Below, in pieces: positions 1 to 22,225 of a stretch of DNA of 31,957 bases. The DNA is from a virus (taxonomy: Duplodnaviria > Caudoviricetes), in IMG/VR virus record IMGVR_UViG_3300036978_000226, positions 1-31,957 of that record; one strand, 5' to 3'. Within the stretch, counting starts at the first letter, position 1. Each line of letters begins with the position of its first letter. A program made the position numbers and the translations under genes. The notes beneath the pieces were generated by a model that had not been told where the DNA came from, ran no database searches, and was given only the letters and a program-made list of their open reading frames with translations.

Positions 1-2368
1 CCTGATCCTTGCCGCTGCGCACAGAACCCTTGGGGTTCTCGATGGCTACCGGCAGCCCTTGGAAGCTGATGTGCTGCTTCTGGTAATTCCCGGCCTGCTT
101 CTGGGCTTCCGTGGGCTGCACGGCACCGCCGCGCTTGTAGTTGCCGAACTGCTGACCAGTTTCAGCTGCCTTCTGGATGACATCAGCCATCTTGTTGTTC
201 ATCTTCTCTCCGGGCATAGCGGTCATCAGCTTTTGCTGAAAGAGAGTTTTTCCGGCTGGGGATTGGTAGTCGGCGACCTTTCCTTTGACCTTTTCTGGCA
301 TTTCAGACCGGGCTTTAGTCCAGATTTGTTCCGCCTGAACAGGGGACCGGAAGCCGCCAGCGTATCCCTTGTGAGGAATTCCGGCTTCGTACGTACCGTG
401 GTATTGGCCTTCTTTGTTCATGACCAGCTTGCCCTCAGGATCAAGTTCCGTAGCGGAATATCCAGTCGAAAGCTGCGGCATGCCCAGAAGGCGTGGATCG
501 GCATTAGCAAAGCGGGCAGCGCCGACGTCAGGGAAGCCAGCTGAGCGCCAGCGGACGCTGTCCATGTTCTGCACAAACTTGGAGATATGGGTGCCCGGCC
601 TGTATGGTTTCTTCGGGTTGCCGGTGTTGTAGAAGAAGTCGTGAACGCCCTGAGTATCTTGGATACCCGGCCACTCCTTTGGGAATTCCTTGGTCTGCGG
701 AAACTTTTCCCGCATTTCATCATCAAACTTGTCAATGTCGCTCTTCTTGATCGGAAGATGTTTGATCTGGTTGATCACGGACTGGAGCATCATGTGGGAA
801 CTGTCGGCGGACCCAAGCCCCATCGCCGTGTGAAGGCCATATACTGGCCCCTCCTTGCCGTACTCCTTGATGCGATTGAGCGCGGTCTTGGCGGCACCTG
901 CGCGGTTACGCCACCCTGTTGGGTTCTCGCCACGAGAAAACTCTGACCGGATGTAATCACCACCGCCCTGCTGGTTCACATCTCCGACCGGAACGCCCAT
1001 GACCTTTCGAAGAACGGCATTTGCTGGAGTGTTGTCTCCAACCAGTGGGACCATGGTCGCCCCCTCCCGGTTCGCCTTTTCGACGTCAAATGGCTTCCAA
1101 GGTTCAAGGTTACCCTTGGGTGCGTACTCGGCCTCCATCTCGGACAGCGGTGTTATCAAATGTCCGCTTTTGGAGGTGTTCTTTATACCAGAGAGAACCG
1201 GCATGTTGCTGGCAAGGCTCTTGTTCTTCTGCATCAGGCCAGCGCCGGTTCGCGTGTACGATCCGCCCTGCTCCGCGATCTGAAGCGCCCGCTTCACAAT
1301 GTCCTGCGTCGATCCGGAGCTAAGATGCCTGACGAGGTCCGGGTGAACCAAATCATCAAGGCCATGATCATCGCCCATGGCTGCCATAGCGTGCATCAGC
1401 ATCTGGTGCTGACGCTCCATATCCCCCATGGAGCCGCCATCCATCTTGCCAATGCGACCGCCGGTGGCGGCATTCTGCATGGTGTCCATGATGTCGCCAT
1501 GGGTGGTGGTGGCGTTCTCAGCCTTGTCCCAGACCGCGTGGTGGGTCAGGTGCTGACGGAACGGCTCCATGCCGGGGTCCAGCTTGGGGTTCATGGCGGC
1601 CTGACGCGCAGCGAGGCGGTCCACAGCCGGGGCACCAGCGGGGCCGCTGAGCTTGCTGCCGACGGCCTTGGTGGGCATGCCGGTGTTCAGGATCACTTGC
1701 CGGGCGTCCAGCGTCGGGAGATCGCCACGGCCCAGCAGGGAGCCGACGAAACCAGCCTTGGCGTCCTTGATGCCATGCAGATTGGTGGCGAAATCGCGCC
1801 ATGGCTTGACCGGGCTGTCTCCAGACAGGCCAGCCTTGACCAGACTGGACACCAATTCGTGCTTTCCGGCCAGATTATTGACCGCCCAAGGCAGAGCATG
1901 GCTTTCGGTGGCGAAACCAAACGGCTTCATGGCCCGCTGGGCGTGCGCAACGGCCTCGTCGTCGACCCTTCCGTCCTCTGCGGCGTCCAGAAAGCGCTGA
2001 CCCATCGAAGATTTGAGCCATTCGGCCATCGCACCCTCTGGACGGATCATTTTTCCGACCGATTGCGGCAAATCCAGACCGCCTGCTCGAACCAAATCGG
2101 AATTTCGCTCCTTGCGGCGGATACTGGCGCGCGTAATGGCGTAGGCCTTGATCAAATCGCGCCCAGAAAGACCCTGACCAGCGGCTTTTGAGGCCATTTT
2201 GTGCATGAAATCGCCAAATTCATGGACGTGACCGGGAATTTCGGGAAGTCCGCCCAGTTCTTCGTGAACATCCTTCAGCGGACGCCAGTTTACGCGGTCA
2301 ACCTTGGCGTTTGGGACGTCTTGGTACTTGGACACCAAATCCATGGCGCGCTTCACGGTGTCCGACAT
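1..2368 (-). CDS. Large polyvalent (putative virion-injected) protein, 3'-truncated by window edge; N-terminal HhH-glycosylase-like domain, central unknown domain, start of InPase (inorganic pyrophosphatase-like) domain
   Basis: Not in the ORF track because there is no stop in the window. Manual translation from ATG 2368 (AGGAG RBS at 2376-2380) is open for 789 codons: MSDTVKRAMDLVSKY...NYKRGGAVQPTEAQKQAGNYQKQHISFQGLPVAIENPKGSVRSGKDQ. The last segment is the characteristic N-terminus of the polyvalent-protein InPase domain. Confidence 0.85.
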   Translation of the reverse strand, partial: MSDTVKRAMDLVSKYQDVPNAKVDRVNWRPLKDVHEELGGLPEIPGHVHEFGDFMHKMASKAAGQGLSGRDLIKAYAITRASIRRKERNSDLVRAGGLDLPQSVGKMIRPEGAMAEWLKSSMGQRFLDAAEDGRVDDEAVAHAQRAMKPFGFATESHALPWAVNNLAGKHELVSSLVKAGLSGDSPVKPWRDFATNLHGIKDAKAGFVGSLLGRGDLPTLDARQVILNTGMPTKAVGSKLSGPAGAPAVDRLAARQAAMNPKLDPGMEPFRQHLTHHAVWDKAENATTTHGDIMDTMQNAATGGRIGKMDGGSMGDMERQHQMLMHAMAAMGDDHGLDDLVHPDLVRHLSSGSTQDIVKRALQIAEQGGSYTRTGAGLMQKNKSLASNMPVLSGIKNTSKSGHLITPLSEMEAEYAPKGNLEPWKPFDVEKANREGATMVPLVGDNTPANAVLRKVMGVPVGDVNQQGGGDYIRSEFSRGENPTGWRNRAGAAKTALNRIKEYGKEGPVYGLHTAMGLGSADSSHMMLQSVINQIKHLPIKKSDIDKFDDEMREKFPQTKEFPKEWPGIQDTQGVHDFFYNTGNPKKPYRPGTHISKFVQNMDSVRWRSAGFPDVGAARFANADPRLLGMPQLSTGYSATELDPEGKLVMNKEGQYHGTYEAGIPHKGYAGGFRSPVQAEQIWTKARSEMPEKVKGKVADYQSPAGKTLFQQKLMTAMPGEKMNNKMADVIQKAAETGQQFGNYKRGGAVQPTEAQKQAGNYQKQHISFQGLPVAIENPKGSVRSGKDQ

Positions 2369-2372
2369 GCCA

Positions 2373-5300
2373 TCACTCCTTCAGCTTCAGCTTCATGGTA
2401 GCAGCCTTGCCGTCTTTCGTGAAGCTGCGCGTGATGCCCAGCGCTTTTTCGAAGTCGAAGCTGTGTTTTGCCCGGACACGCTTCAGTTCGGCGACGTCTT
2501 CCGGGGTCACAAAGTCCTCTGCACCTTCATGGTGGACCCAGTCGGGCATGATGCCGACCTTCTGGGGCGCAAAGATCGTGTCTTCGGTCCTTGCGCCACG
2601 GTTCGCCTCGCCATGGGGGCCGTAATTCAGCCAGCTGTTCTGGCCGCGCGTCTCGCTCGTCATCGCCATTCGGGCGAGGGGCGAGAACATGGACGCATGC
2701 GCCCGCCAAGCATTCTCTTCGCCGTCAGCGCGGAAGCCGACACCCTCTTTGGCGTGCCCGTAGTAGTCGTGGATGGCGCGGAAGACGTCGTTCACCGTCA
2801 CCGGTATGCCATTCCAGTGTTCACCGGTGCCCTGCAGCATGGGGTTCTTCTTGACGTCTTCGTCGGTGATCTCGCCGCTGCCGTACCCGGCGTATGTCGG
2901 GTAGACCCACATGTGGTGATTGTTTCGTACGTCCTCCACGGCAAGCCGGGGCGAGGCCTTGTACGGGTCTTCCTGCTTGCTGGGGTGCCAGAACTCTGCC
3001 TTGAACCCGGCTGCCTTGGCGGCCTGATATTGCGCCATCGTCTCCTTCGCCAGAGCGCTGTAGGACGCCTTGGTCAGTGGATCGTCTGGGTTGTCCGTCA
3101 TGGCTTCATATGCCGAAGCGATGCGCTTTGAGCGGCCCGGATCGACCTTTGCGTACTTGGTCGGCGGATTGTACGGCAGGCCGGACGACGCCATGTACTG
3201 GCGGGCGATCTCGCGAATGCGCGGGTCCGGTCCAGCCTGCAGCGATCCGCCAGTTAGCGGGATGCGGACGTTTTGGGGGAGGCCTTCGAGAGGTGTTTCA
3301 CCCTGTGACGGAAGAACGCCACTGCTTCCTCGTACTCCTCCTGCGACGGGAAGTCCTCCCGCTTCGGGGCGTGCCTGAGATGTTCCTGCGGTATCTTGTT
3401 GACCATCGGTCGACCCTCCAATTGATTTCTCCACGGTCCCGCCGCGCTTGAACGCGGTCTGTCCGCCAAGGACGCCCTGCTTCAGCTTGTCCGTCATCGG
3501 GATCGAGAACCCGGTGTATTGGTCCGACAGCGGCATGCTGCCCGGCTTGATGTCGGGGTCGTGCTGCTGTGCCAGACGCATGACACTTTTGGGCAGGATA
3601 TTGTCGTAATATCCCTTCATGCCCTCGCCGCTGTCTTTCAGGTTGTACCGATCCGCCTGCGCCTGTCCGGGCGTGAAGACCACGTGGTCATAGTTGCCCA
3701 TGGCGGCTTCGTGCAGGACGTTCTTCAGCGCCAGATCGGTCCAGTGCTGAGTGTTCTGGACGTAGGGTGCGGCTGGCTTCTTGCCGTTGTATCTCGCGCG
3801 ACCATAGCTCAAAGACCCCGCCTGATCTTCCGGAATTTTGTCGTAGGCATCCAACATCTCGACGTTGCTTGGGTGCTTGGAGAAGACCTCTCCGGTCTTT
3901 GTGTCAAAGATTTCGTACTGGTTCTTTGGGTCGTAGAAGCCATGCTTCTTGCCTTCCTGCCCCCAGTCGGACTGCATTTCCTCGACGTGCAGGACGCGTT
4001 TGTCGAGGCCGGGCTTGTTGTAATACGGGCTTCCGCTCCACCGCATCAGGCGGGAAATTGATGCCGCTTCCTCCGGAGAGATCACGCCCCGGTTGACGCC
4101 AAGTTCAGCAGAACCAGCGCCCAGATCGCGGATGCCGACACCCATATGGTCGGCAAGCTTTTGCATGACGGGGCGCATCTCATTGCGGTCACCACCCACC
4201 GTGCGATCACTCATGCGGATGTGGGCGAGGATGTTGTCGTTCTCATGCCAGTGGCTGGACACGTAGTCGTTATTGCCGGTCGCCGGAAGCGTCAGCAGGC
4301 GCTCCCGATAGTTGGAGCCACCCGGAATGGTGTAGCCCTCATATTCGGTCGGGCGCGGCTCGTTTTCGTCGTTGTACTCAGCGTTTTCATACTTGACCTG
4401 AGGCCCCTTGGTGCGGCGCATAAGCAGGTCGTACTCTGCCTGCTCTGCCTCGCTCTTGGGCTTCCCCCAAAGGGCATAGATGCGCTTCTCCTGCTCCTTC
4501 GAAAGGTAGCTGGGGTTCTCGCCGTACTGGTGGACCTCCATCTTCGGAAGGTTTTGGTCGAAGTGCTTGGCCATGTCTTCGCGGCTGATCTTGTCACCAT
4601 CAGGGCGACCAGCATGCTCAATCTCAGACGGCTTCGCGCCAAGCTTTTTGGCGGCGGCAATGTACTGGTCAACCGTACCCTTCTCCTGCGGCAGGCCCCG
4701 GATGATCTCGGCGGCCTTGGAGTAAAGACCGTGATCGGTGACCGTGCGTCCACCCTTGGAGCGCTCTACAGCACCACCATCAGCCTTGTTCATGTGCTTC
4801 TGGTTGGGGTCGAACTTGCCGTTGTTGTAGATCGACTTGATCTGCTGCGGCTCCTTCAGGGCCACCACAAGGTTGCCGCCCTGATCCGCCGGTATCCACG
4901 CGTCGTGCCCCTTGGCGCGCAGCGTGTCGAACCAGTCGGACTGGGCCGCCTTGTAGTTGTCCCGCAGGGTCTCAGGCGGCAGCGGGCCGGTGTACGGGTT
5001 CTCAGCCTTCACGTAGGCAGGGATGACGCGGGACGCTGTGTTGGTGGAGACCATGTTCCAGCCTTCGCGCTTGTAGCCTTGGCTGTCGTTCTGGGCGGCA
5101 TAGGACGACGCCACCTCAGGGTCTCGCGTGAACCATGCTCCATGGCGGCCCACGTTGTGCGACGTGAAGTCCTTGTCCTTGCTGGTCCCGGTGTAGAACA
5201 CGTGCGGCTCACCGTCGGTGTGGGTCACGCTGTTGCCGAACCAGTTGGCGAAGTTGTCGTTGTCGCCAATCCCGCCACCCTCAGCCTTGGTGATGTCGGG

Positions 5301-7217
5301 GTTGCCGGGGTCGAACGCGCCTTGGTTTCCGATGGCGCTCTTGATCTGGTGGGGCTGGAAGGTGACGTACTCGTTGGCGTCCTCAGCCTTGCCATAAATG
5401 TTCTCGGCCACGATCCCGTCGAAGCCCTTCGCTTGCAGGCTTTCTGCGACCTGCGGCGTGATCAGGTGGGGGAAGTCCTTGCTCCCGCCAGCGTGACGTT
5501 CGCGCATCTCCCGCAGGTTGAACTCGTCCAGAAAGAGGGGCGACTTCATGTGAAGGTGGACAGGCATGATGTTGTCGCCGACCTTCTTCCGGTTGTGCAT
5601 CTGCGGAAGGTTGCTTGGGTCGTCACCGAAGAACATGGCGGGTCCAGAGGGGCCATCCTTGTCAGCCTTGAACGTGCTGAAGTCACCGGATGTCCGGTGG
5701 TAGAATGTCTTCGGGGTGCCGTCGGAGTTCTTCACCGCATCGTCAGCATCCTGATGCCACGCAGCAAGGTTGGTCGCCCGGTCGCCGATCCCGCCACCCT
5801 CAGCGTAGCCATAGCGGTTCGCGGTCCAGCCCTGCGCCCAATCTGGGATGCTGTCACGGCTGTGGGACGGACCCCAGCCGCGCTCAGCGCCGACGTCGAA
5901 GTGCATGTTGTTGTCGTAGAAGCCGAAGCCCCGGAAGCCAGCGTTCCACGCAGCGTCAGCCAGCGCCAGCTTGTCATCTGGGGACCACCCGGTGGTGTCG
6001 ACGTCGAAGGCATTGCCATGGATGTGCTGGCTGCCACTAGCGCCACCCACTTCCTCGTTTTTCTTGGGGTCGCGGTATCCGCTGACGATGCCAAACTCTG
6101 GCCCGGCCCACGCGCTCTGCAGGCCGGACATGGCCTTGGCTGCCGCAGCGCTGATGCCCTCGCCATAGCCGTGCGGCTCCGCGTGCGCTGCGTGTGGCTC
6201 CGGTGCCGGTGCTTCATCCCCACCCTTGAAGAACTTTGCCGTGTCGGTGAGGCTCTGCATCGAGGCGAGGACGTCCGCTTCCGGCTGCTGCGCTTGGATA
6301 GGCGCGCGGGCCACGGCCAGCCGGGGCGTGTTCTGCATCATCGGGGCGGGCACGTATCCACCAGCCGCATGGACGGCGCGACCACCCGTTGCTGCGCTCA
6401 GGTGAGACAGGTGCGCCAAACGGGGATCGAAGCGGGCAAACTGTGAGCGGATTTTTGCGGGGTCCGACATCACCGTTTCCGTGGAGCGGATGGCATTTTT
6501 GGCGTCTGAGTGCCTGACGGAACCTTTTGCAGAAACCGCATCCGGAAACTGCGCGCTATCAAAACCTCTCCGGACATGCTCAGGGGTGTAGCCCTTTGGA
6601 AGAGGTGCCCCCATTGCAACATTTGATTTGTAAGGGGCGTCCCTGACGTCAGTCCTGCCAATGTTGGAAACTGTCGGGACAATGTTCTTCTCAAACGGGA
6701 CGCCTTTGTAGTCACGCTCCCCGTAGCGGTCGAGATATCGGCTTGCTGCTTTTGGGTTGTCTGTCGTGGAAATACCAGATGTGCCGGTATACCCCATGAA
6801 CTTTCCGGCTGGGTCGAAGCTGTCAGTGTCTTTGAGCGTGGAGTGGTAACCCTTATTGGTCATCCCCATCGCCTTAGCACGCTCCATTCGGCTGGCGCTG
6901 TCCATAGGCAGGTCCATACCCGTCTGACCCGTCTCATACAGCTTCCACAGGTGCTGTGGGTCAGCTGAATTCAGGTGATCATTCGTGATCTCTTTCTCAC
7001 GACCGTCGCGCAGCATACCGGCAACCGTCTCCGCTGCCGCGATGCCGTCATCCACCCGACCCCCGTCAGCATGCACGGCGCGGGGGACGTTCGGCATGTA
7101 CTTCGACGGGGCGATCTGGCCGGGGGCGCGTTCTTGCGCCTGCTTGGCCCGGTTCTTCTCCAGAATGCCGCCAAGGGTCAGCTTGGCAGCCCGGATCGCC
7201 TTGTCGATGTCGCTCAT
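2373..7217 (-). CDS. Large polyvalent protein (1614 aa): three ART-PolyVal ADP-ribosyltransferase-like domains, peptidase M15, EEMQSDW domain, C-terminal HDYYGH zincin-like domain
   Basis: ART-like motifs GYHST..IRSQFARFDP, FYHRT..GFDGIV..EYVTFQPHQIKS and FYTGT..GAWFT..PQQIKS. M15 motifs SGYRD..SQHIHGNAFD..HFD. Also VLHVEEMQSDW and FRAIHDYYGH..GEENAW..ETRGQNSWLN. Start overlaps the portal stop (ATGA). Confidence 0.85.
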   Translation of the reverse strand: MSDIDKAIRAAKLTLGGILEKNRAKQAQERAPGQIAPSKYMPNVPRAVHADGGRVDDGIAAAETVAGMLRDGREKEITNDHLNSADPQHLWKLYETGQTGMDLPMDSASRMERAKAMGMTNKGYHSTLKDTDSFDPAGKFMGYTGTSGISTTDNPKAASRYLDRYGERDYKGVPFEKNIVPTVSNIGRTDVRDAPYKSNVAMGAPLPKGYTPEHVRRGFDSAQFPDAVSAKGSVRHSDAKNAIRSTETVMSDPAKIRSQFARFDPRLAHLSHLSAATGGRAVHAAGGYVPAPMMQNTPRLAVARAPIQAQQPEADVLASMQSLTDTAKFFKGGDEAPAPEPHAAHAEPHGYGEGISAAAAKAMSGLQSAWAGPEFGIVSGYRDPKKNEEVGGASGSQHIHGNAFDVDTTGWSPDDKLALADAAWNAGFRGFGFYDNNMHFDVGAERGWGPSHSRDSIPDWAQGWTANRYGYAEGGGIGDRATNLAAWHQDADDAVKNSDGTPKTFYHRTSGDFSTFKADKDGPSGPAMFFGDDPSNLPQMHNRKKVGDNIMPVHLHMKSPLFLDEFNLREMRERHAGGSKDFPHLITPQVAESLQAKGFDGIVAENIYGKAEDANEYVTFQPHQIKSAIGNQGAFDPGNPDITKAEGGGIGDNDNFANWFGNSVTHTDGEPHVFYTGTSKDKDFTSHNVGRHGAWFTRDPEVASSYAAQNDSQGYKREGWNMVSTNTASRVIPAYVKAENPYTGPLPPETLRDNYKAAQSDWFDTLRAKGHDAWIPADQGGNLVVALKEPQQIKSIYNNGKFDPNQKHMNKADGGAVERSKGGRTVTDHGLYSKAAEIIRGLPQEKGTVDQYIAAAKKLGAKPSEIEHAGRPDGDKISREDMAKHFDQNLPKMEVHQYGENPSYLSKEQEKRIYALWGKPKSEAEQAEYDLLMRRTKGPQVKYENAEYNDENEPRPTEYEGYTIPGGSNYRERLLTLPATGNNDYVSSHWHENDNILAHIRMSDRTVGGDRNEMRPVMQKLADHMGVGIRDLGAGSAELGVNRGVISPEEAASISRLMRWSGSPYYNKPGLDKRVLHVEEMQSDWGQEGKKHGFYDPKNQYEIFDTKTGEVFSKHPSNVEMLDAYDKIPEDQAGSLSYGRARYNGKKPAAPYVQNTQHWTDLALKNVLHEAAMGNYDHVVFTPGQAQADRYNLKDSGEGMKGYYDNILPKSVMRLAQQHDPDIKPGSMPLSDQYTGFSIPMTDKLKQGVLGGQTAFKRGGTVEKSIGGSTDGQQDTAGTSQARPEAGGLPVAGGVRGSSGVLPSQGETPLEGLPQNVRIPLTGGSLQAGPDPRIREIARQYMASSGLPYNPPTKYAKVDPGRSKRIASAYEAMTDNPDDPLTKASYSALAKETMAQYQAAKAAGFKAEFWHPSKQEDPYKASPRLAVEDVRNNHHMWVYPTYAGYGSGEITDEDVKKNPMLQGTGEHWNGIPVTVNDVFRAIHDYYGHAKEGVGFRADGEENAWRAHASMFSPLARMAMTSETRGQNSWLNYGPHGEANRGARTEDTIFAPQKVGIMPDWVHHEGAEDFVTPEDVAELKRVRAKHSFDFEKALGITRSFTKDGKAATMKLKLKE
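3254..3406 (-). CDS. Putative overprinted 50-aa protein nested in the +1 frame of the 1614-aa gene
   Basis: GGAGG RBS about 9 nt before ATG 3406. Product MVNKIPQEHLRHAPKREDFPSQEEYEEAVAFFRHRVKHLSKASPKTSASR looks protein-like, while the host frame here is a low-complexity linker. Confidence 0.55.
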   Translation of the reverse strand: MVNKIPQEHLRHAPKREDFPSQEEYEEAVAFFRHRVKHLSKASPKTSASR

Positions 7218-9529
7218 TTTTCACGCTTCCCTTTGGCCTGAACCTGCATCGCCAGCTTCAGGATGTCGGTCTTGTGGTCCTGTTGCTGCATGTCGCGCTC
7301 ATGCTGCATCCGGACGGCATCGTTCATCTGGTCACGATCCATGTCCATCTGCTTGGACTGCAGGTCTTTCTCACGGTCCAGATCGCGGTTCTCGTCGTTC
7401 ATCTGGTCGCGGCGCGCAGAGATTTCCATCTGCTTGGCCTTGTTCTGCTCACCCATCAGCTTGGCCTGAAGCTCCATCGGGTGCGGGCCAGCTGGGCCAG
7501 CCAGACCCTGCGGTGCGGCGGGTTGCTGTGCCCTCGCCATGGCGGCCTGCGCCGTCATGGTCTTGGCGTCAGCTTCCTGTTTGGCGATCTTGATCTCCTC
7601 GATGCCCTTCATGATCTCAGGCGGCATCTGGTTGCGGGCGTTCTCAGGCTTCAGGAACTGCTCCGGGTTCGACCAGCCGATGGCCTTCAGGGCGGCCTTG
7701 TCCACGGCGACCTCGTCGTACAGGGCCGGGCTTGCCGCCTGCAGCTGCTTCAGGGCCATGATCTTCATGACGCGCTGGGCGTGGCTGGAGGTGTTCGGGT
7801 CGGCCTGAGGCACCAGTTCCACGTCGGTCAGGGCCTGCAGAAGCTTCTCTTCGTCCCACTGGACGCTGGGCTTGCGGTTGCGCTGCCAGAAGCTTTCGGG
7901 GTTCTCACGGAAGCACTTGACCAGCAGCGTGAACTCTTCGGCCTGAGCGGAATGCATGCGCTTGTGGACCGCGTTCAGTACCTTCATGGCCTGCTCGATC
8001 ATCGCCAGCGTCGTGCCGACCGGGGCGTCAGACCGGCCCTCGCCGACCTGAAGTTCGGAGGTGCCGCCAACGCGCATGCCAGTCTGCGCCATGTTCTCGG
8101 TCAGCGCCATCAGGGCGGAAGACGGCTCCTTGTACGGCAGCGGCATGATGGCGTCGCCGATCCGCTGGCCGCCCGTCTTGACCAGTGCGGCACCACCCGG
8201 CGGGACGCGGAACACGTTGGTGTTCTGGCGCGCGCCGCTGTCCGACATCAGGAAGCCGGGGAAGTTGGCGAACATGCCAGCGTCCAGAAGTTCGCGCCAC
8301 GCGGCGGTCACGGCGTTGGTGGTGTTGCCAAGGATGTGCAGCAGGCCGATATCGTAGAAGCCAAGACCCGGAACGAAAGTGTACTTGACGAACGTCGTGC
8401 GCGCTTCCGGCAGGGCTTGGGTGTCTTCATCGTAGTTGCGTACGATACTCAGGATTTCGCGGGACGAGATGTCGATGGTCACCCGGTACGGGATTTCCAG
8501 CCCAGACGGCTTGCCCTTGTGCTTGTGTTCGAACCCCTTCAGGTCCAGTTCGCAGTAGACCTCGTAGATTTCCCGGTCGCGGTCCTCAGGGTTGGACACG
8601 GTGACGGAGATGCCTTGCTGGGATGCCTTGGCTTCCTGCGCCGCGTCGACGGTGACCTCTTTGGGCGTGGAGAGTTCCACGTCGCGGTAGACGCCCAGAA
8701 TTTGCAGGCGCTTCACGGTCGACGGCTTCAGGGTCACCCGGTGCGTGACGCGCAGGGCGCTGGACAGGTCCGTGGCCTTGTTGTTCACGATCAGGTCGTC
8801 GGCATCGACACTGTCAGACGCCGGGCGGTTGCGCAGCGGGCAGAAGTAGACCTTTTTGAACGCGGTGCCTCCGAAGCCCAGCAGGAGCAGCATGCGGTCT
8901 GTGTCGGGGTAGTACTCGCGCGCCGTCGACGTCAGGTAGTGGTTCATGTCCTTCTCAAGGGCATCGGCCAGCTGGTCGCGCTCCAGCGTCGTGCCGTTGG
9001 CGTCGTCCCTGATCTTGACCGGGCCGTCGGTCGGCAGAAGCTCAGACCGGGCATTGGCTTGGAAGCGCAGCACGGCTTCCTGCAGCAGCGGGTGCCGGAC
9101 CTTGGACATGCCTTCGACCGGTGCGCCGTCAGCGGAACCTTGCACGCCGGGAAGCTCGATCTTCAGGCCCAGCAGCTTGATGCCCTGCGCCCGGTCGTCG
9201 ATCCATTCGGTGCGGCTGTCCAGATCGTCCTGCACGCCGCGCATAAGCTCTTCGGTGACGCGGGCCAGTTCGTCCTCTTCAAGCTCTTCGGCGAGGTTGT
9301 CGAACCAGCCCTCCGGACCCTTCTTGCCTTCGGCATCCTCGATGGGTTTGCCGTCGAGAGAGACCGTGATCGACCCGTCGCCGTGGTCGATGCGCAGGAT
9401 GGAACCGTCGGTGTCGAACTCAGGGACGTCGATGTCTTCGTCCGCGTGTTCTACGGTGACGTCCATGGGGGCGATGGCAGCCTCTTCCGGCTCCTCTTGC
9501 AGTCGGATGTTTGGTGACAGGCCGGACAT
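7214..9529 (-). CDS. Portal protein (P22/podovirus-like) with Q/M-rich coiled-coil C-terminal extension
   Basis: 771 aa downstream of terL. Motifs HPLLQEAVLRFQA, G.AFKKVYF, GFYDIGLLH, APVGTTLAMIEQ and VPQADPN are typical of this portal family. GAGG RBS. Confidence 0.88.
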   Translation of the reverse strand: MSGLSPNIRLQEEPEEAAIAPMDVTVEHADEDIDVPEFDTDGSILRIDHGDGSITVSLDGKPIEDAEGKKGPEGWFDNLAEELEEDELARVTEELMRGVQDDLDSRTEWIDDRAQGIKLLGLKIELPGVQGSADGAPVEGMSKVRHPLLQEAVLRFQANARSELLPTDGPVKIRDDANGTTLERDQLADALEKDMNHYLTSTAREYYPDTDRMLLLLGFGGTAFKKVYFCPLRNRPASDSVDADDLIVNNKATDLSSALRVTHRVTLKPSTVKRLQILGVYRDVELSTPKEVTVDAAQEAKASQQGISVTVSNPEDRDREIYEVYCELDLKGFEHKHKGKPSGLEIPYRVTIDISSREILSIVRNYDEDTQALPEARTTFVKYTFVPGLGFYDIGLLHILGNTTNAVTAAWRELLDAGMFANFPGFLMSDSGARQNTNVFRVPPGGAALVKTGGQRIGDAIMPLPYKEPSSALMALTENMAQTGMRVGGTSELQVGEGRSDAPVGTTLAMIEQAMKVLNAVHKRMHSAQAEEFTLLVKCFRENPESFWQRNRKPSVQWDEEKLLQALTDVELVPQADPNTSSHAQRVMKIMALKQLQAASPALYDEVAVDKAALKAIGWSNPEQFLKPENARNQMPPEIMKGIEEIKIAKQEADAKTMTAQAAMARAQQPAAPQGLAGPAGPHPMELQAKLMGEQNKAKQMEISARRDQMNDENRDLDREKDLQSKQMDMDRDQMNDAVRMQHERDMQQQDHKTDILKLAMQVQAKGKREK

Positions 9530-11097: not shown

Positions 11098-11126
11098 AAG
11101 ATATGGGAAATCGTACAACTGGTCAA
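11098..11126 (-). promoter_or_regulatory. Sigma70-like promoter
   Basis: TTGACC-17 nt-TATCTT; the -35 overlaps the terL stop codon. Confidence 0.55.
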
Positions 11127-12766
11127 GCGCTGTACAGGGGCGTCTCGTTGTTGTTGCCGTGGAAGACCTGACCGTCCTCGATCTCCCGCATGCGCTCGGT
11201 GGCCCGGACCAGATGGCCGGTGACCCGGAGGTAGCTCAGGGCCATGCTGACGGTGTCGACCAGATCGTCGTGCGCCCCACGCGGGAAGCTGGCCGTCTGG
11301 CGGATCACCATCTCGGCCCAGTCCTTAGTCGGGGCGAAGACCATGCCCTCGCTGAAGATGTGCTGCACGGCATAGAGGCGGGACGTCTTGTCCAGCGTCT
11401 TGGGGTCGTACAGGATCACCACGATCCCATCGTTGGCGAACACCTTGCGAAGCTCCTGCGCCACGCTGTGACCGGCGGCCTTGTTCTCGATCAGCAGGAC
11501 GTCGACCTTCATGCGGCGGCACGTGTTGGCGGTCTTCTCGACAAGCTCTGCGAACTCCAGCCTGTCCTGCCACGCGTACATCATCATGGCCTTGGGCACC
11601 GGGCCGACGGCCTCTGAACTGTAGCTGCGGGTGATGTCGATCTGGCGTCCATACCGGTCGACCGACCGCGTGGACTGGCTCTCACCGTCGCCGCTGAACG
11701 TGCCCCAGACCGTCAGGGCGCTTGGGTCGTTCTCGGCCTTCTTGGTGTAGGCGGTGTCCAGAGACGCCACCACGAAGTCGATGTCGGGGTACTCTGGGCG
11801 ATCCCATACCTGCCACCAGCTGTCCTTGATGATGCCGCCGCCCCGTGGCTCCGGGGACTGTGCGTATTGCCCAGCGGTCGCGTACGGACCCATGGCGGCC
11901 TCGTCCCGGTCGACCACGTTCTGCGGGAACCGCTCAGGGAACAGAAGCTCGTCCCGCTCTGTGCGCGGGTCTTCATAGCCCAGCAGGGTCGGCGTGGCCC
12001 GCAGCGGGTCGTACCGCATCGGCAGCATGATGTGGTCGTACCCCATGTCGCTGTCGAGGATCACGCCCGACACGTCCCGCTCATGCAGGCGCTGCATCAC
12101 CACCACGATGGCGGACTTGTCCGGGTTGTTCAGGCGGCTGGTCACAGCTTCCTTGAACAAGTTCGTGGCGGTCTCCCGCTTCGCGTCAGAGTTGGCATCG
12201 TCGACGCTGTGGGGGTCATCTATGATCACCCGGTCACCACGGTAGCCGGTGATGCCTTCGAACGCACAGGCCTGCCTGAAGCCCGTGGCGGTGGTTTCGA
12301 ACTTGGCCTTGGCGTCCTGATCGCTGGTCAGCACCACCCGGTCGCCCCAGAGGCCCTGATACCACTCCGACTTGACCAGACGGCGCATGCGCAGGCTGTC
12401 GCGGATGGCGAGGTCTTGGCTGTGGCTGGCGCAGACGTAGCGCATGTGCGGCATGCTGCGCGGCCCCCACTCCCATGCGGGCCAGAACACGCCGATCAGC
12501 AGCGACTTCATGGTGCCCGGCGGGACGTTGACCAGAAGGCGGTTGTAGAAGCTGCCGTCCTCTTCGAACGTCACGCCGTCGGTGATCGCCTCCAGATGGG
12601 AGCAGATGAAGTCGATGTGCCAGCCGTGGATGTAAGGCTGGCCCGGCTCGATGATGTGCCAAGCCATCCGGACGAAGGCCGCCAGAGACATCTCGCAGCG
12701 TTTCTTGTTGATCACCGACAGCAGCGATGACGGGTCTATCGCGACCGGGAGATCAATCTTCCCCAT
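11123..12766 (-). CDS. terL: Terminase large subunit
   Basis: Walker A variant VNVPPGTMKS, Walker B GDRVIIDDPH, VVVMQRLHERD, nuclease motifs SLDTAY..DPSA, IENKAAG and FPRGAHDDLVD. Confidence 0.95.
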   Translation of the reverse strand: MGKIDLPVAIDPSSLLSVINKKRCEMSLAAFVRMAWHIIEPGQPYIHGWHIDFICSHLEAITDGVTFEEDGSFYNRLLVNVPPGTMKSLLIGVFWPAWEWGPRSMPHMRYVCASHSQDLAIRDSLRMRRLVKSEWYQGLWGDRVVLTSDQDAKAKFETTATGFRQACAFEGITGYRGDRVIIDDPHSVDDANSDAKRETATNLFKEAVTSRLNNPDKSAIVVVMQRLHERDVSGVILDSDMGYDHIMLPMRYDPLRATPTLLGYEDPRTERDELLFPERFPQNVVDRDEAAMGPYATAGQYAQSPEPRGGGIIKDSWWQVWDRPEYPDIDFVVASLDTAYTKKAENDPSALTVWGTFSGDGESQSTRSVDRYGRQIDITRSYSSEAVGPVPKAMMMYAWQDRLEFAELVEKTANTCRRMKVDVLLIENKAAGHSVAQELRKVFANDGIVVILYDPKTLDKTSRLYAVQHIFSEGMVFAPTKDWAEMVIRQTASFPRGAHDDLVDTVSMALSYLRVTGHLVRATERMREIEDGQVFHGNNNETPLYSA

Positions 12767-13211
12767 CTGCCTTCAGGCTCTTCTCCAGAGCAGACGCCAG
12801 AACGTCCAGTTCTTCAAGGCTCAGGTTGGACACGTCCAGTCTGCTGGTCATCTGGATCGGGGGCATGTCTGGAGCGCCGCCCACCGCCATCTTTTCGCCG
12901 TAGACCCGTGAGTTCCACTTGCCGATCAGGCGCAGCCTTGTGTCGATGCGGACCCGCTTGTCCGCCGGATCAACCCTTTTCTCGTCGGCGATCTCGATGC
13001 ACTCGTCGGCCAGAGCATGCGTGCCGTCGATCTTCGCGCGCGCGACAAGGTCACTGAATTCGGGGAACTTCCTCTGCCACCTCAGCACCGACATGTAGCA
13101 AGGCATGTCATCAGCCCTGCAGATCACCTTCATCGGCACGCCTTCTGCAAGCTTGTCGAGGATCGCCTCTGCGACCTTGTCGTTGTAATCTGTGGGACGG
13201 CCTGCGGGCAT
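12753..13211 (-). CDS. terS: Terminase small subunit (Sf6-like)
   Basis: GRPTDY..ICRADDMP..VLRW..ADECIEIAD..RVRIDTR..YGEK pattern; directly upstream of terL. Confidence 0.9.
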   Translation of the reverse strand: MPAGRPTDYNDKVAEAILDKLAEGVPMKVICRADDMPCYMSVLRWQRKFPEFSDLVARAKIDGTHALADECIEIADEKRVDPADKRVRIDTRLRLIGKWNSRVYGEKMAVGGAPDMPPIQMTSRLDVSNLSLEELDVLASALEKSLKADGED

Positions 13212-13568: not shown

Positions 13569-13969
13569 CCCATCTCTGCGCTGCGCTTGCGAATGGCTTG
13601 GATCAGCTTTTTCAGCCGATCCACGCTGTCCACAAGAATGGCCATTTCAACCATGGAAAACATGTCCTGCTCGATCAGGACGCCAGATTTGAAATCTCCA
13701 GCTGCGCTGCGAGTGCGGACATAGGTGTTCATGTTGGTCTTTTTGTGCCTGATGACCTCAACCAAATTATCATCGGTCCAATCGGAAGCGTTCATGCGCT
13801 TCTCAACAGCCTTGACCAAAGACCGCGCCATCTTCTCGCTGTCAATCAGGACTTCATCATCGATCAGGTGCCACATCCCTTGGCACACCTTCACGCCGCC
13901 CTCTGCGGCGTAGACATAGATGCGCAGGCCAACACTCTCGTTGCCAATCGTCGTTACATTTTCCGGCAT
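13556..13969 (-). CDS. Hypothetical protein with internal duplication
   Basis: TGATG coupling to sprT with a GAGGAGG RBS. Confidence 0.65.
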   Translation of the reverse strand: MPENVTTIGNESVGLRIYVYAAEGGVKVCQGMWHLIDDEVLIDSEKMARSLVKAVEKRMNASDWTDDNLVEVIRHKKTNMNTYVRTRSAAGDFKSGVLIEQDMFSMVEMAILVDSVDRLKKLIQAIRKRSAEMGWVV

Positions 13970-14607
13970 CACACCTCCTCCCCGACCAGTTGCTCATTGC
14001 AGTCTCCACAGATCAGGTTCGCGCCCTGCTTGGCCCACGCCTTGAAGTCGCATGCGGGACAGGTGTGCTTCACCTTCGATGTGTCTTTTTTCTTCGCCAC
14101 AGCCTCGCGTGCCTTAGTGAAGTACGGCAGGTCAAACCCGGTGGCCTTCAGGTCAGCGCAGGACATCTCAAACGCCCCATCAGGCTCCACGTAGTGGGTC
14201 ATCTGGCGGCCAGTCTGCTTGCCACCGGGTTCGCCCGTGTTCGACGGGATCAGGCCCACTGCCAGCATCAGCTGGACCCACGCACGGTTGTGGTGGCCCT
14301 TCTTGCCGGGCTTGCCGAACTCTTGCTGCTCCAGATGGGTCATCTCATGCACCAGCGTCGACAGCACGGCTTCCAGCGTGCGGTCCATGGTCGCCGGGTT
14401 CAGGGCGATCTCATGCGTCGCGTCGCCATCCTCGCGGTGCGCGAACTGTTCGGCCCAGAAGTAGCCGTAGGCCTTGCGCGACGCCCGCAGGGTGAACAAC
14501 ACCGGCGGCAGGCGATCTTCGAACAGGGTCTTGTTGAAGTGATTGAACGCGCGGTCGAGCGCTTCGTAGGTCTCAGCTGTGGGGGTCTGCCAGTTCATCA
14601 TCATCAT
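13969..14607 (-). CDS. SprT-like zinc metalloprotease
   Basis: FNHFNKTLF, EIALNP, TLVHEMTH..HH (HExxH) and C-terminal CxxC..CxxC. Confidence 0.9.
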   Translation of the reverse strand: MMMMNWQTPTAETYEALDRAFNHFNKTLFEDRLPPVLFTLRASRKAYGYFWAEQFAHREDGDATHEIALNPATMDRTLEAVLSTLVHEMTHLEQQEFGKPGKKGHHNRAWVQLMLAVGLIPSNTGEPGGKQTGRQMTHYVEPDGAFEMSCADLKATGFDLPYFTKAREAVAKKKDTSKVKHTCPACDFKAWAKQGANLICGDCNEQLVGEEV

Positions 14608-21320: not shown

Positions 21321-21493
21321 CTCTCGATCCTCAGCTTTGCCTTGAACGACCGACCAAAAGTTTCGATCAGCCGCTGAAGGTCTTCGACAACCTCGTCATC
21401 CACCGCCACGCCCTTGGCCGCGCCCTCGTCGTACGCGTTCCGCAGCGCCCAAAGGACGATGGCGGTGTCTGAGATGCTCAGCTTAATCGACAT
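21317..21493 (-). CDS. Hypothetical protein (MSIKLSISDT...)
   Basis: 58 aa; 3' part of track ORF 21317..21706. Confidence 0.55.
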   Translation of the reverse strand: MSIKLSISDTAIVLWALRNAYDEGAAKGVAVDDEVVEDLQRLIETFGRSFKAKLRIER

Positions 21494-21947
21494 CGTCGTG
21501 GTCCCCGTCGTGGTCCCGGTCGTGCTTGTCGTAATCCTTGCCATGCCCCCGGTCATGGTCGTCGTGTTCATCATGGCCCTTGCCGTGGTCGCCATGGTCG
21601 TCGTCATCCACATGATCGTCATCATCTCCATGATCGTCGTCGAGGTCCGGCCCGGTGTAATGATCGTCGTCATCCCCATGATCGTCGTCATCGTCATCTC
21701 CATCATGGTCCGGCTTCGGGTGCGGGTCAGGCTTTGGTCCGGGGCCGGGATCGGGCTTCGGGTCTGGACCGGGATCAGGCTTCGGATCGGGTGCAGGACC
21801 GGGACCGGGACCGGGCGCAGGGCGATCCAGCAGGCTCAGGCCATCACCGCCACCCTGTTCGCAGTCGAACGGCAGGGGGACGACCAGACAGCGGTCTACG
21901 TGCGTCCCGCAGGCTGCCAGAGGCAGCGCAAGGATGATCCATTTCAC
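21483..21947 (-). CDS. Putative lipoprotein with Pro-rich linker and Asp/His-rich tail
   Basis: GTG start coupled to the upstream stop, GGAGG RBS; MKWIILALPLAAC lipobox; (PDPK/PGP)n followed by (DDDHG)n. Confidence 0.75.
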   Translation of the reverse strand: MKWIILALPLAACGTHVDRCLVVPLPFDCEQGGGDGLSLLDRPAPGPGPGPAPDPKPDPGPDPKPDPGPGPKPDPHPKPDHDGDDDDDDHGDDDDHYTGPDLDDDHGDDDDHVDDDDHGDHGKGHDEHDDHDRGHGKDYDKHDRDHDGDHDDVD

Positions 21948-22225
21948 AGCAGCACCTCCACAAGCATCACAGACAGGGTGATCAGGATGACCGTCATAGA
22001 GGCCGCTATCACCATGACGACGGGGTAGTTTGCCTTCGGTGGTTCCCAGAGGCGGCCAACCGCCTCCGTACACAGCTTCTGGTCCTCCAGATTATTGCTG
22101 TAGATCAGCATCTCGAAAGCCGCGTCGATGTCTTTATGGCTGTGATCCTCCATGTTCTGGAGGATCGCCCGCGCTTCAGAAAGTCGCATGTTTTTGTATG
22201 GCGTTTCCACAATGTTTCCCTTCAT
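21944..22225 (-). CDS. Membrane protein with a C-terminal TM helix
   Basis: VVMVIAASMTVILITLSVMLVEVLL hydrophobic tail. Confidence 0.6.
   Translation of the reverse strand: MKGNIVETPYKNMRLSEARAILQNMEDHSHKDIDAAFEMLIYSNNLEDQKLCTEAVGRLWEPPKANYPVVMVIAASMTVILITLSVMLVEVLL

Follow-up and report, generated by a model that had tools for sequence, protein, structure and literature searches.

Do the giant proteins encoded beside the head genes of a phage stay whole, or does a short peptide that recurs along them mark where they come apart? The question is raised by a single phage contig of 31,957 bases (IMG/VR record IMGVR_UViG_3300036978_000226; the window, throughout, is this whole stretch), whose minus strand carries the terminase small and large subunits, the portal and two long open reading frames (ORFs), ORF-A and ORF-B. 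Products of both contain copies of the peptide [A/K]-x-G-G. The analysis indicates that a bulky residue followed by [A/K]-x-G-G marks joints between swappable modules, and it favours, with a probability of roughly 0.55, the reading that the motif serves as a site of cleavage during maturation, immediately ahead of Ala/Lys, such that ORF-A would yield separate pieces and a motif-rich repeat protein encoded by relatives would be a disposable core.

As the class is defined by Iyer et al. 2017 (PMC5512222), ORF-A and ORF-B belong to the polyvalent proteins. The hallmark conflict domains, of which that class has at least two per large phage protein, are represented by ART-PolyVal (in two stretches) and Peptidase_M15 in ORF-A and by the beginning of InPase at the C-terminal end of ORF-B. 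The genes also lie in a head-morphogenesis neighbourhood, directly after the portal here and ahead of GroES, scaffold and capsid genes in relatives. The proteins of Iyer et al. are likewise multi-domain, with ART-PolyVal, InPase and peptidase domains beside head genes, and processing has been proposed for them; it was assigned there to zincin-like domains, whereas here a fixed peptide lies at the joints. The words 'glycine' and 'linker' have 0 occurrences in the main text of that paper (PMC5512222). Judged from their domain families, the modules of ORF-A and ORF-B may act as effectors.

Motif sites and module borders

All 12 motif strings quoted in the sequence-only reading are found where it placed them on the minus strand, with GG at residues 52, 278, 286, 474, 647, 814, 822, 1259 and 1267 of ORF-A and 303, 311 and 747 of ORF-B (Table 1). 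Its [A/K]-x-G-G pattern fits 9 of the 12; the sites at 822, 1267 and ORF-B 311, all second members of pairs, have S, S and M instead. The tandem pairs are real and number four, at a spacing of exactly 8 residues and not about 7 as first given, and 8 is also the commonest short GG-to-GG spacing in relatives (32 cases). What was described as a protein of positions 1-2368 does carry the sites listed for it, but it is ORF-B truncated by the contig end, where the InPase match spans 35 of 135 domain positions.

ORF-A contains seven [AK]xGG sites against 2.8 in shuffled sequences, a count reached by 1.8% of 2000 shuffles; the two of ORF-B, against 1.6 shuffled, are at chance level and not significant. 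For a definition of borders blind to the motif, 182 ends of BLAST high-scoring segment pairs (HSPs) were taken from homologues found among 574 proteins of at least 150 amino acids (aa), excluding ends close to query or subject termini. Each of the seven ORF-A sites has at least 7 HSP ends within 12 aa, a level reached by 14% of positions. None of 1554 circular shifts equals this placement on homology breakpoints, and a mean-support statistic gives p = 0.012; the homologues are mutually related, so the HSP ends behind both values are not independent. Two further breakpoint clusters, at ~1073 and ~1192, are motif-free in the window. In ORF-B, for which homologues are few, 21% of shifts do as well as the real sites. 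The proposed coincidence of motif and domain border stands for ORF-A.

Comparison with relatives reveals modules that are swapped, gained, lost, fused or split into genes at the motif. Module 50-275 of ORF-A, flanked in the window by a duplicated RAVHA.GG, is absent from a relative with a 95% identical portal (G001). Module 820-1256 is the start of a separate gene in MW202675.1, and the first module of ORF-B (B1), a gene start in the window, lies downstream of a motif within a larger protein of relative G005. Codon choice for Gly, Ala and Lys at the motif is variable, and synonymous differences separate the two copies of RAVHA; a mild preference for GGC/GGT remains at the motif glycines (p 0.001 and 0.017). 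Because the codons vary, a DNA-level element is ruled out and the signal resides in the protein.

Distribution of the motif in related phages

Seven genomes were compared: the window, MW202675.1, which is the closest annotated genome (portal 77% identity), and five near-complete relatives (G001-G005), with the relatives' genes called by a simple codon model and gene classes assigned by position only. The strict pattern [FYHRKM][AK]xGG occurs 97 times in 22 post-portal proteins against 9.7 in shuffled sequences (maximum 21 in 200 shuffles), or 5.8 per 1000 aa, and 34 times in 24 ejection-block proteins against 7.6 (maximum 15), or 2.4 per 1000 aa. The other 435 proteins hold 26 against 16.8 (maximum 26), or 0.31 per 1000 aa, and five of these 26 belong to one small post-capsid protein of G004 and G005. 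Strict-motif density in the post-portal cargo genes is thus ~19-fold that of the remaining genes, and the plain [AK]xGG form follows the same order (7.9, 5.4 and 1.5 per 1000 aa in post-portal, ejection-block and other proteins). Enrichment in structural-module genes, which the sequence-only reading had expected across the phage and its homologues, is accordingly borne out for post-portal and ejection proteins, the rest lying near shuffle level.

The carriers are polyvalent proteins, a low-complexity repeat protein, the small post-capsid protein of two genomes, ejection proteins, a GNAT protein and a protein of 190-350 aa. The repeat protein is conserved, 380-610 aa long, rich in Lys, Gly, Pro and Met, and without a family match; it bears 8-14 motif copies and is a candidate for a disposable internal core. 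Its form of the motif is more basic than that of ORF-A and ORF-B, and a profile trained on repeat proteins only scores above zero at 4 of 9 listed ORF-A sites and 1 of 3 in ORF-B; it was set aside in favour of patterns. Small basic proteins encoded directly after the capsid genes (L102:10276-10560; L101:11164-11517) are 94-117 aa long with 2-3 motif copies each. Every relative examined has a GroES co-chaperonin gene within its capsid module (L081:24255-24644; L092:7909-8298; L276:8146-8586).

Anchors in T5, crAss001 and lambda

The tape measure pb2 of phage T5 is cut after R1127 during assembly, a site located by mass spectrometry (PMC10038345). Residues 1128-1131 are AEGG, with 92 residues left downstream, so the cut precedes the Ala of the motif. 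The T5-type arrangement of a bulky residue ahead of A/K-x-G-G (R/AEGG, the slash marking the junction before Ala/Lys) recurs in the window as H/ADGG, Y/AEGG, K/AEGG, K/ADGG and F/KRGG. In the conversion of pb2, an injected virion protein, to pb2* and pb2C, the measured cut fits the motif; unlike the many sites in presumed podophage head cargo, it is one site in a siphophage tail protein (PMC10038345).

A second anchor is cargo protein 1 (gp45; CARG1, PF25725) of PhiCrAss001, which is packaged in the head, ejected and divided by seven motif joints. The Atlas lead to it scores 0.82. It contains nine [AK]xGG against 2.4 shuffled, whereas the 28 other crAss001 proteins together contain 1 against 7.1. 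Two segments of gp45 are resolved: residues 425-552 on the portal wing and, ~420 Å away in the tail, residues 214-245 (PMC10172136). Residue 425 is the A of an AFGG (N/AFGG), so the resolved portal-bound domain begins at the motif and retains AFGG; an xxGG at this position is kept in 34 of 35 distinct CARG1 homologues. CARG1 itself has no match in the window or its relatives, and homology between its portal-binding domain and the GE domain described below is not established (hhalign E 0.011; Atlas score 0.82). From the matrix-assisted laser desorption/ionization (MALDI) peak lists published by Shkoporov et al. (PMC6235969), bands 4-12 (13 in all) were re-read against a set of 29 proteins that did not include gp48 or gp50, after removal of peaks from trypsin autolysis and some from adducts or noise. 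Nine virion proteins, including the 12-copy portal, are fingerprinted in these bands; a gp45 fingerprint is absent from them, at never more than 4 of 73 peptides, which is a weak point in favour of cutting.

Lambda gpH is processed to gpH* and gpHC, a fragment of ~14 kDa whose cut site and catalyst were stated as unknown in 2025 (PMC12617516). It has ATGG at 734 and 779, and the copy at 734 precedes a GE element (match over residues 732-771; E 3e-4 against the GE copy of phage DSL-LC04 in a three-sequence search). A scan with the C-terminal part of gpH returned 80 near-identical copies and nothing further. In gpH (PMC12617516), as in the 'hook' protein gp46 of JBD30 (PMC11445458), the motif and then a GE element lie near the C-terminus; for JBD30 gp46 the authors report no peptidase motif (PMC11445458). 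With T5 and gp45 both placing the boundary before Ala/Lys, a maturation cut site at that position is the most likely reading.

Candidate readers and catalysts

The JAB, Ulp/C48, C39, ubiquitin-like (Ubl) and prohead-protease families are absent, by Pfam at E<=0.001, from the 81 called proteins of the complete relative G002 and from 64 late proteins of G001 and G005, a screen that could miss remote family members. No Pfam or PHROG match to a dedicated prohead protease was found either. The peptidase matches in the three genomes are SprT-like, M15 and the self-cleaving S74 chaperone. The title of a 1973 paper is said to concern a role of the host in cleaving a T5 tail protein.

Two related observations concern peptidases of known families. 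One ejection protein (L087:12696-17087 (-), residues 259-309) has an internal Peptidase_S74 self-cleaving chaperone before a motif-joined lysozyme part, and hence a second, known kind of cut within the same chain. Upstream of the terminase, window 13969-14607 (-) is a homologue of the relatives' SprT-like zinc peptidase gene.

The sequence-only reading had proposed looking for a protease gene outside the window; the search there gave no known maturation family and one speculative candidate, the GE-domain protein. Its gene adjoins the GNAT and ejection genes in all 11 near-complete relatives checked, a region of which the window ends short. The protein consists of a 43-aa N-terminal module followed by two ~50-aa copies of the GE element, with a motif ahead of each. 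The 43-aa module (PHROG 2423; L105:9848-10420 (-), residues 1-43) also forms small genes of its own and recurs under annotations of head maturation protease in Acinetobacter and Burkholderia phages, and is possibly a head-targeting piece; the likeness of the GE protein to those proteases is limited to this module. An invariant Asp in copy 1 and a nearly invariant Glu in copy 2 would fit a shared active site. A first AlphaFold model, from 48 close sequences, has a predicted local distance difference test (pLDDT) score of 61 and no Foldseek match; a second, from 130 sequences, reaches 81, and its matches in BFVD are uncharacterised phage proteins only.

A search with a GE profile yields 2806 representatives at E<=0.001. 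Among the 150 best, many are proteins of 550-1500 aa that end in the element pair and contain ART-PolyVal, NUDIX, SLT or GNAT modules linked through the motif; one of them, P0197, carries the last module of ORF-A. The strict motif is present 413 times in these 150, compared with 35 in shuffled sequences, the GE unit's own motifs being part of the count. Cultured relatives with 31-35% portal identity include HTVC023P, HTVC027P, CRP-901, DSL-LC04 and Caulobacter RW. A single GE copy is present in RW gp66, HTVC027P gp82 and DSL-LC04 (E 3e-10 to 4e-6), with a weak one in HTVC023P gp79; none was found in the 48 of 53 kb of CRP-901 that were covered. In their cargo-position genes the strict motif is observed 8 times against 1.4 shuffled in DSL-LC04, 8 against 2.2 in HTVC027P, 3 against 1.3 in HTVC023P, 2 against 0.9 in RW and 0 against 2.0 in CRP-901. 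CRP-901, having neither GE domain nor motif, was counted in favour of a processing role, and the co-occurrence over five cultured phages is only suggestive. The DSL-LC04 copy matches 536 of the 50,697 records of phages searched; tape measures make up most of the 60 matches listed. It also matches two tape measures of solved structure. As the sole shared candidate, the GE domain, a small element of tape-measure type, might speculatively be the reader or the catalyst.

Weighing the explanations

Under the favoured reading, ORF-A and ORF-B would be packed in the phage head and cut just before Ala/Lys at virion maturation into pieces of 18-49 kDa; ORF-A would give pieces of about 25, 20, 19, 19, 49 and 38 kDa plus short linkers, ready for injection, while the repeat protein would be digested as a disposable internal core. 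Several observations weigh against it. The sole measured cut at such a motif is the one T5 site, with none from this phage or any podophage; because pb2 is unmatched by GE profiles at that site, the homology of the T5 joint is argued from the motif alone. Bayfield et al. take gp45 as one continuous chain and do not mention cleavage in their main text (PMC10172136), a difference from the present proposal, and gp46 is likewise missing from the MALDI bands, so that the absence of gp45 may be technical. A cut of gpH before A734 predicts a fragment of 12.5 kDa, compared with the published ~14 kDa (PMC12617516). The complete genome of G002 lacks a known maturation protease by Pfam and has a stand-alone InPase gene without the motif. 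HTVC023P and Caulobacter RW have the GE domain, yet the motif is not significantly enriched in them. The better GE model resembles no solved protease, with no match in the PDB by Foldseek or VIA (best Z 3.7), which does not establish a new fold. Finally, the strict pattern was picked after the data were seen.

The main rival is an uncut loading or docking tag, copies of which would bind a receptor (the GE domain, the portal wing or the scaffold) and gather cargo in the prohead, the repeat protein serving as a multivalent hub. This is a real but clearly less probable account. It would explain motifs at the extreme C-terminus of ejection, GNAT and cargo proteins, where cutting frees merely a short tail, the 8-14 copies in a low-complexity protein, the ordering of the gp45 segment that starts with AFGG on the portal wing, and the lack of a maturation protease in the Pfam screen. 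It does not explain why pb2 is cut exactly at the motif; moreover, a docking tag is unneeded at every internal joint and would not coincide with gene starts in relatives. That the peptide has no reader at all, being an inert flexible linker or the scar of recombination at short coding microhomologies, is improbable: the duplication of RAVHA.GG around module 50-275 and the module swaps at motifs are what shuffling would leave, but the codons vary, the RAVHA copies differ silently, and the peptide is retained in distant crassviruses (the 34 of 35 CARG1 homologues) and in tape measures.

Two other forms of cutting appear very unlikely. Ubl, adenovirus and African swine fever virus proteases recognise a P4-P1 pattern of x-x-G-G shape, which the motif resembles, and the sequence-only reading had drawn on ubiquitin and double-glycine systems in proposing that polyproteins are processed at the motif. 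Its polyprotein claim survives insofar as modules are delimited by the motif, genes for head cargo and ejection proteins are enriched in it, and it most likely marks processing sites; the analogy, with a cut after GG, is probably wrong, since the T5 cut lies before Ala, the resolved gp45 domain retains AFGG and G002 has no JAB, Ulp or C39 family. No better placed is packaging of whole proteins followed by cutting only at injection or later, the protease being supplied by the host or being a zincin-like module within the polyprotein. For polyvalent proteins, self-processing by peptidases of zincin-like type, in some cases with HExxxH, has been proposed by Iyer et al. (PMC5512222); in ORF-A, HDxxxH stands at residue 1483 with GEE after it. 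That string, without a family match, is all that speaks for a zincin-like domain in ORF-A, and a canonical HExxH domain was not detected in ORF-A or ORF-B; the HDxxxH module occurs in no more than 3 of the 6 full relatives, against 6 of 6 for the motif, the hosts of motif users span Bacteroides to E. coli, and pb2 is cut during assembly (PMC10038345).

A wider form of the maturation reading is doubtful: a single processing code shared by the head cargo of podophages, the cargo of crassviruses and, in siphophages, hundreds of tape measures, in which the GE domain would represent a novel protease fold, docked at the portal or the tail tip, with cleavage in front of [A/K]xGG. If so, GE would be the catalyst of lambda gpH and T5 pb2 cleavage, gpHC would start at A734, and phages could load any enzyme flanked by the tag.

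Gene layout and further observations

Features of the locus are collected in Table 1. Module 50-275 of ORF-A appears ART-like by eye, but neither NCBIfam nor PHROG gave a match for this module itself. The first module of ORF-B was read, also by eye, as a helix-hairpin-helix glycosylase, for which PDB, NCBIfam and PHROG offer no support. Another ORF of the window, 21483-22073 (-), combines Pro-Asp/Gly repeats with a long tail rich in His and Asp and has no Pfam match. MW202675.1 (L081/L082) is labelled Myoviridae, yet its stabilisation, adaptor and ejection genes are of podovirus type. The interval between terminase and portal in G002 encodes an Acb2/Tad1 hairpin domain of an anti-defence sponge family (L093:8395-8655 (-)). 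A 90.6-kb record (G010; L078, L080, L106, L111) has portal and GE genes in an inverted duplication, possibly an assembly artefact.

Table 1. Coordinates of motif sites, modules and genes (window positions unless a locus is given; residue numbers refer to the encoded protein)
Feature	Position	Strand	Remarks
ORF-A	2373..7217	-	1614 aa polyvalent protein, next gene after portal; six modules, motifs at joints
HADGG (GG52)	7059..7073	-	closes conserved ~50-aa N-terminal leader
Tandem AATGG/HAAGG (GG278, GG286)	6357..6395	-	RAVHA.GG echoes GG52 context around module 50-275
Peptidase_M15 module (residues 359-438)	5805..6368	-	predicted peptidoglycan peptidase
YAEGG (GG474)	5793..5807	-	separates M15 peptidase module from ART-PolyVal module
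ART-PolyVal module (residues 497-634)	5286..5804	-	E 2e-34 for whole protein, two stretches
KAEGG (GG647)	5274..5288	-	separates two related ART-type modules
Second ART-type module	4785..5285	-	27% identity to preceding ART-PolyVal module (E 4e-9)
Tandem KADGG/RSKGG (GG814, GG822)	4749..4787	-	following module is own gene start in MW202675.1
Tandem FKRGG/KSIGG (GG1259, GG1267)	3414..3452	-	
Last ORF-A module, PHROG 3170 (unknown function)	2376..3425	-	HDxxxH string at residue 1483; also in P0197, a protein ending in GE-domain pair
ORF-B	2..2368	-	at least 789 aa, polyvalent protein running off contig end; two unnamed modules and InPase domain start
Tandem AATGG/KMDGG (GG303, GG311), ORF-B	1433..1471	-	
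YKRGG (GG747), ORF-B	125..139	-	immediately ahead of InPase domain
Portal protein	7214..9529	-	context
Terminase large and small subunits	11123..13211	-	context
Repeat protein of relatives	L081:22830-23978; L088:17194-18450		just ahead of GroES and scaffold gene

Significance

The polyvalent protein class and the maturation cleavage of virion proteins are already known, and the site consensus of the T4, phiKZ and SPN3US prohead proteases ends in Glu. The processing proposed here resembles those systems in that a short site recurs many times in head cargo and also in a core protein that is disposable; it differs from them in the site, bulky-[A/K]-x-G-G, and in that they encode a dedicated prohead protease, of which Pfam and PHROG show none here. 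No published description was found of the motif or of its spread over podophage cargo, crassvirus cargo and tape measures, in a literature coverage that excludes most subscription journals. If the favoured reading is true, a five-residue tag would let very common aquatic podophages and gut crassviruses make separately injected enzymes from giant, shuffled polyvalent genes, and such splitting would need no classic prohead protease. It would also make exact predictions for the cut site of lambda gpH and for whether crAss001 gp45 is one chain or several, and would provide a sequence rule for recognising head cargo and module borders in uncultured phages.

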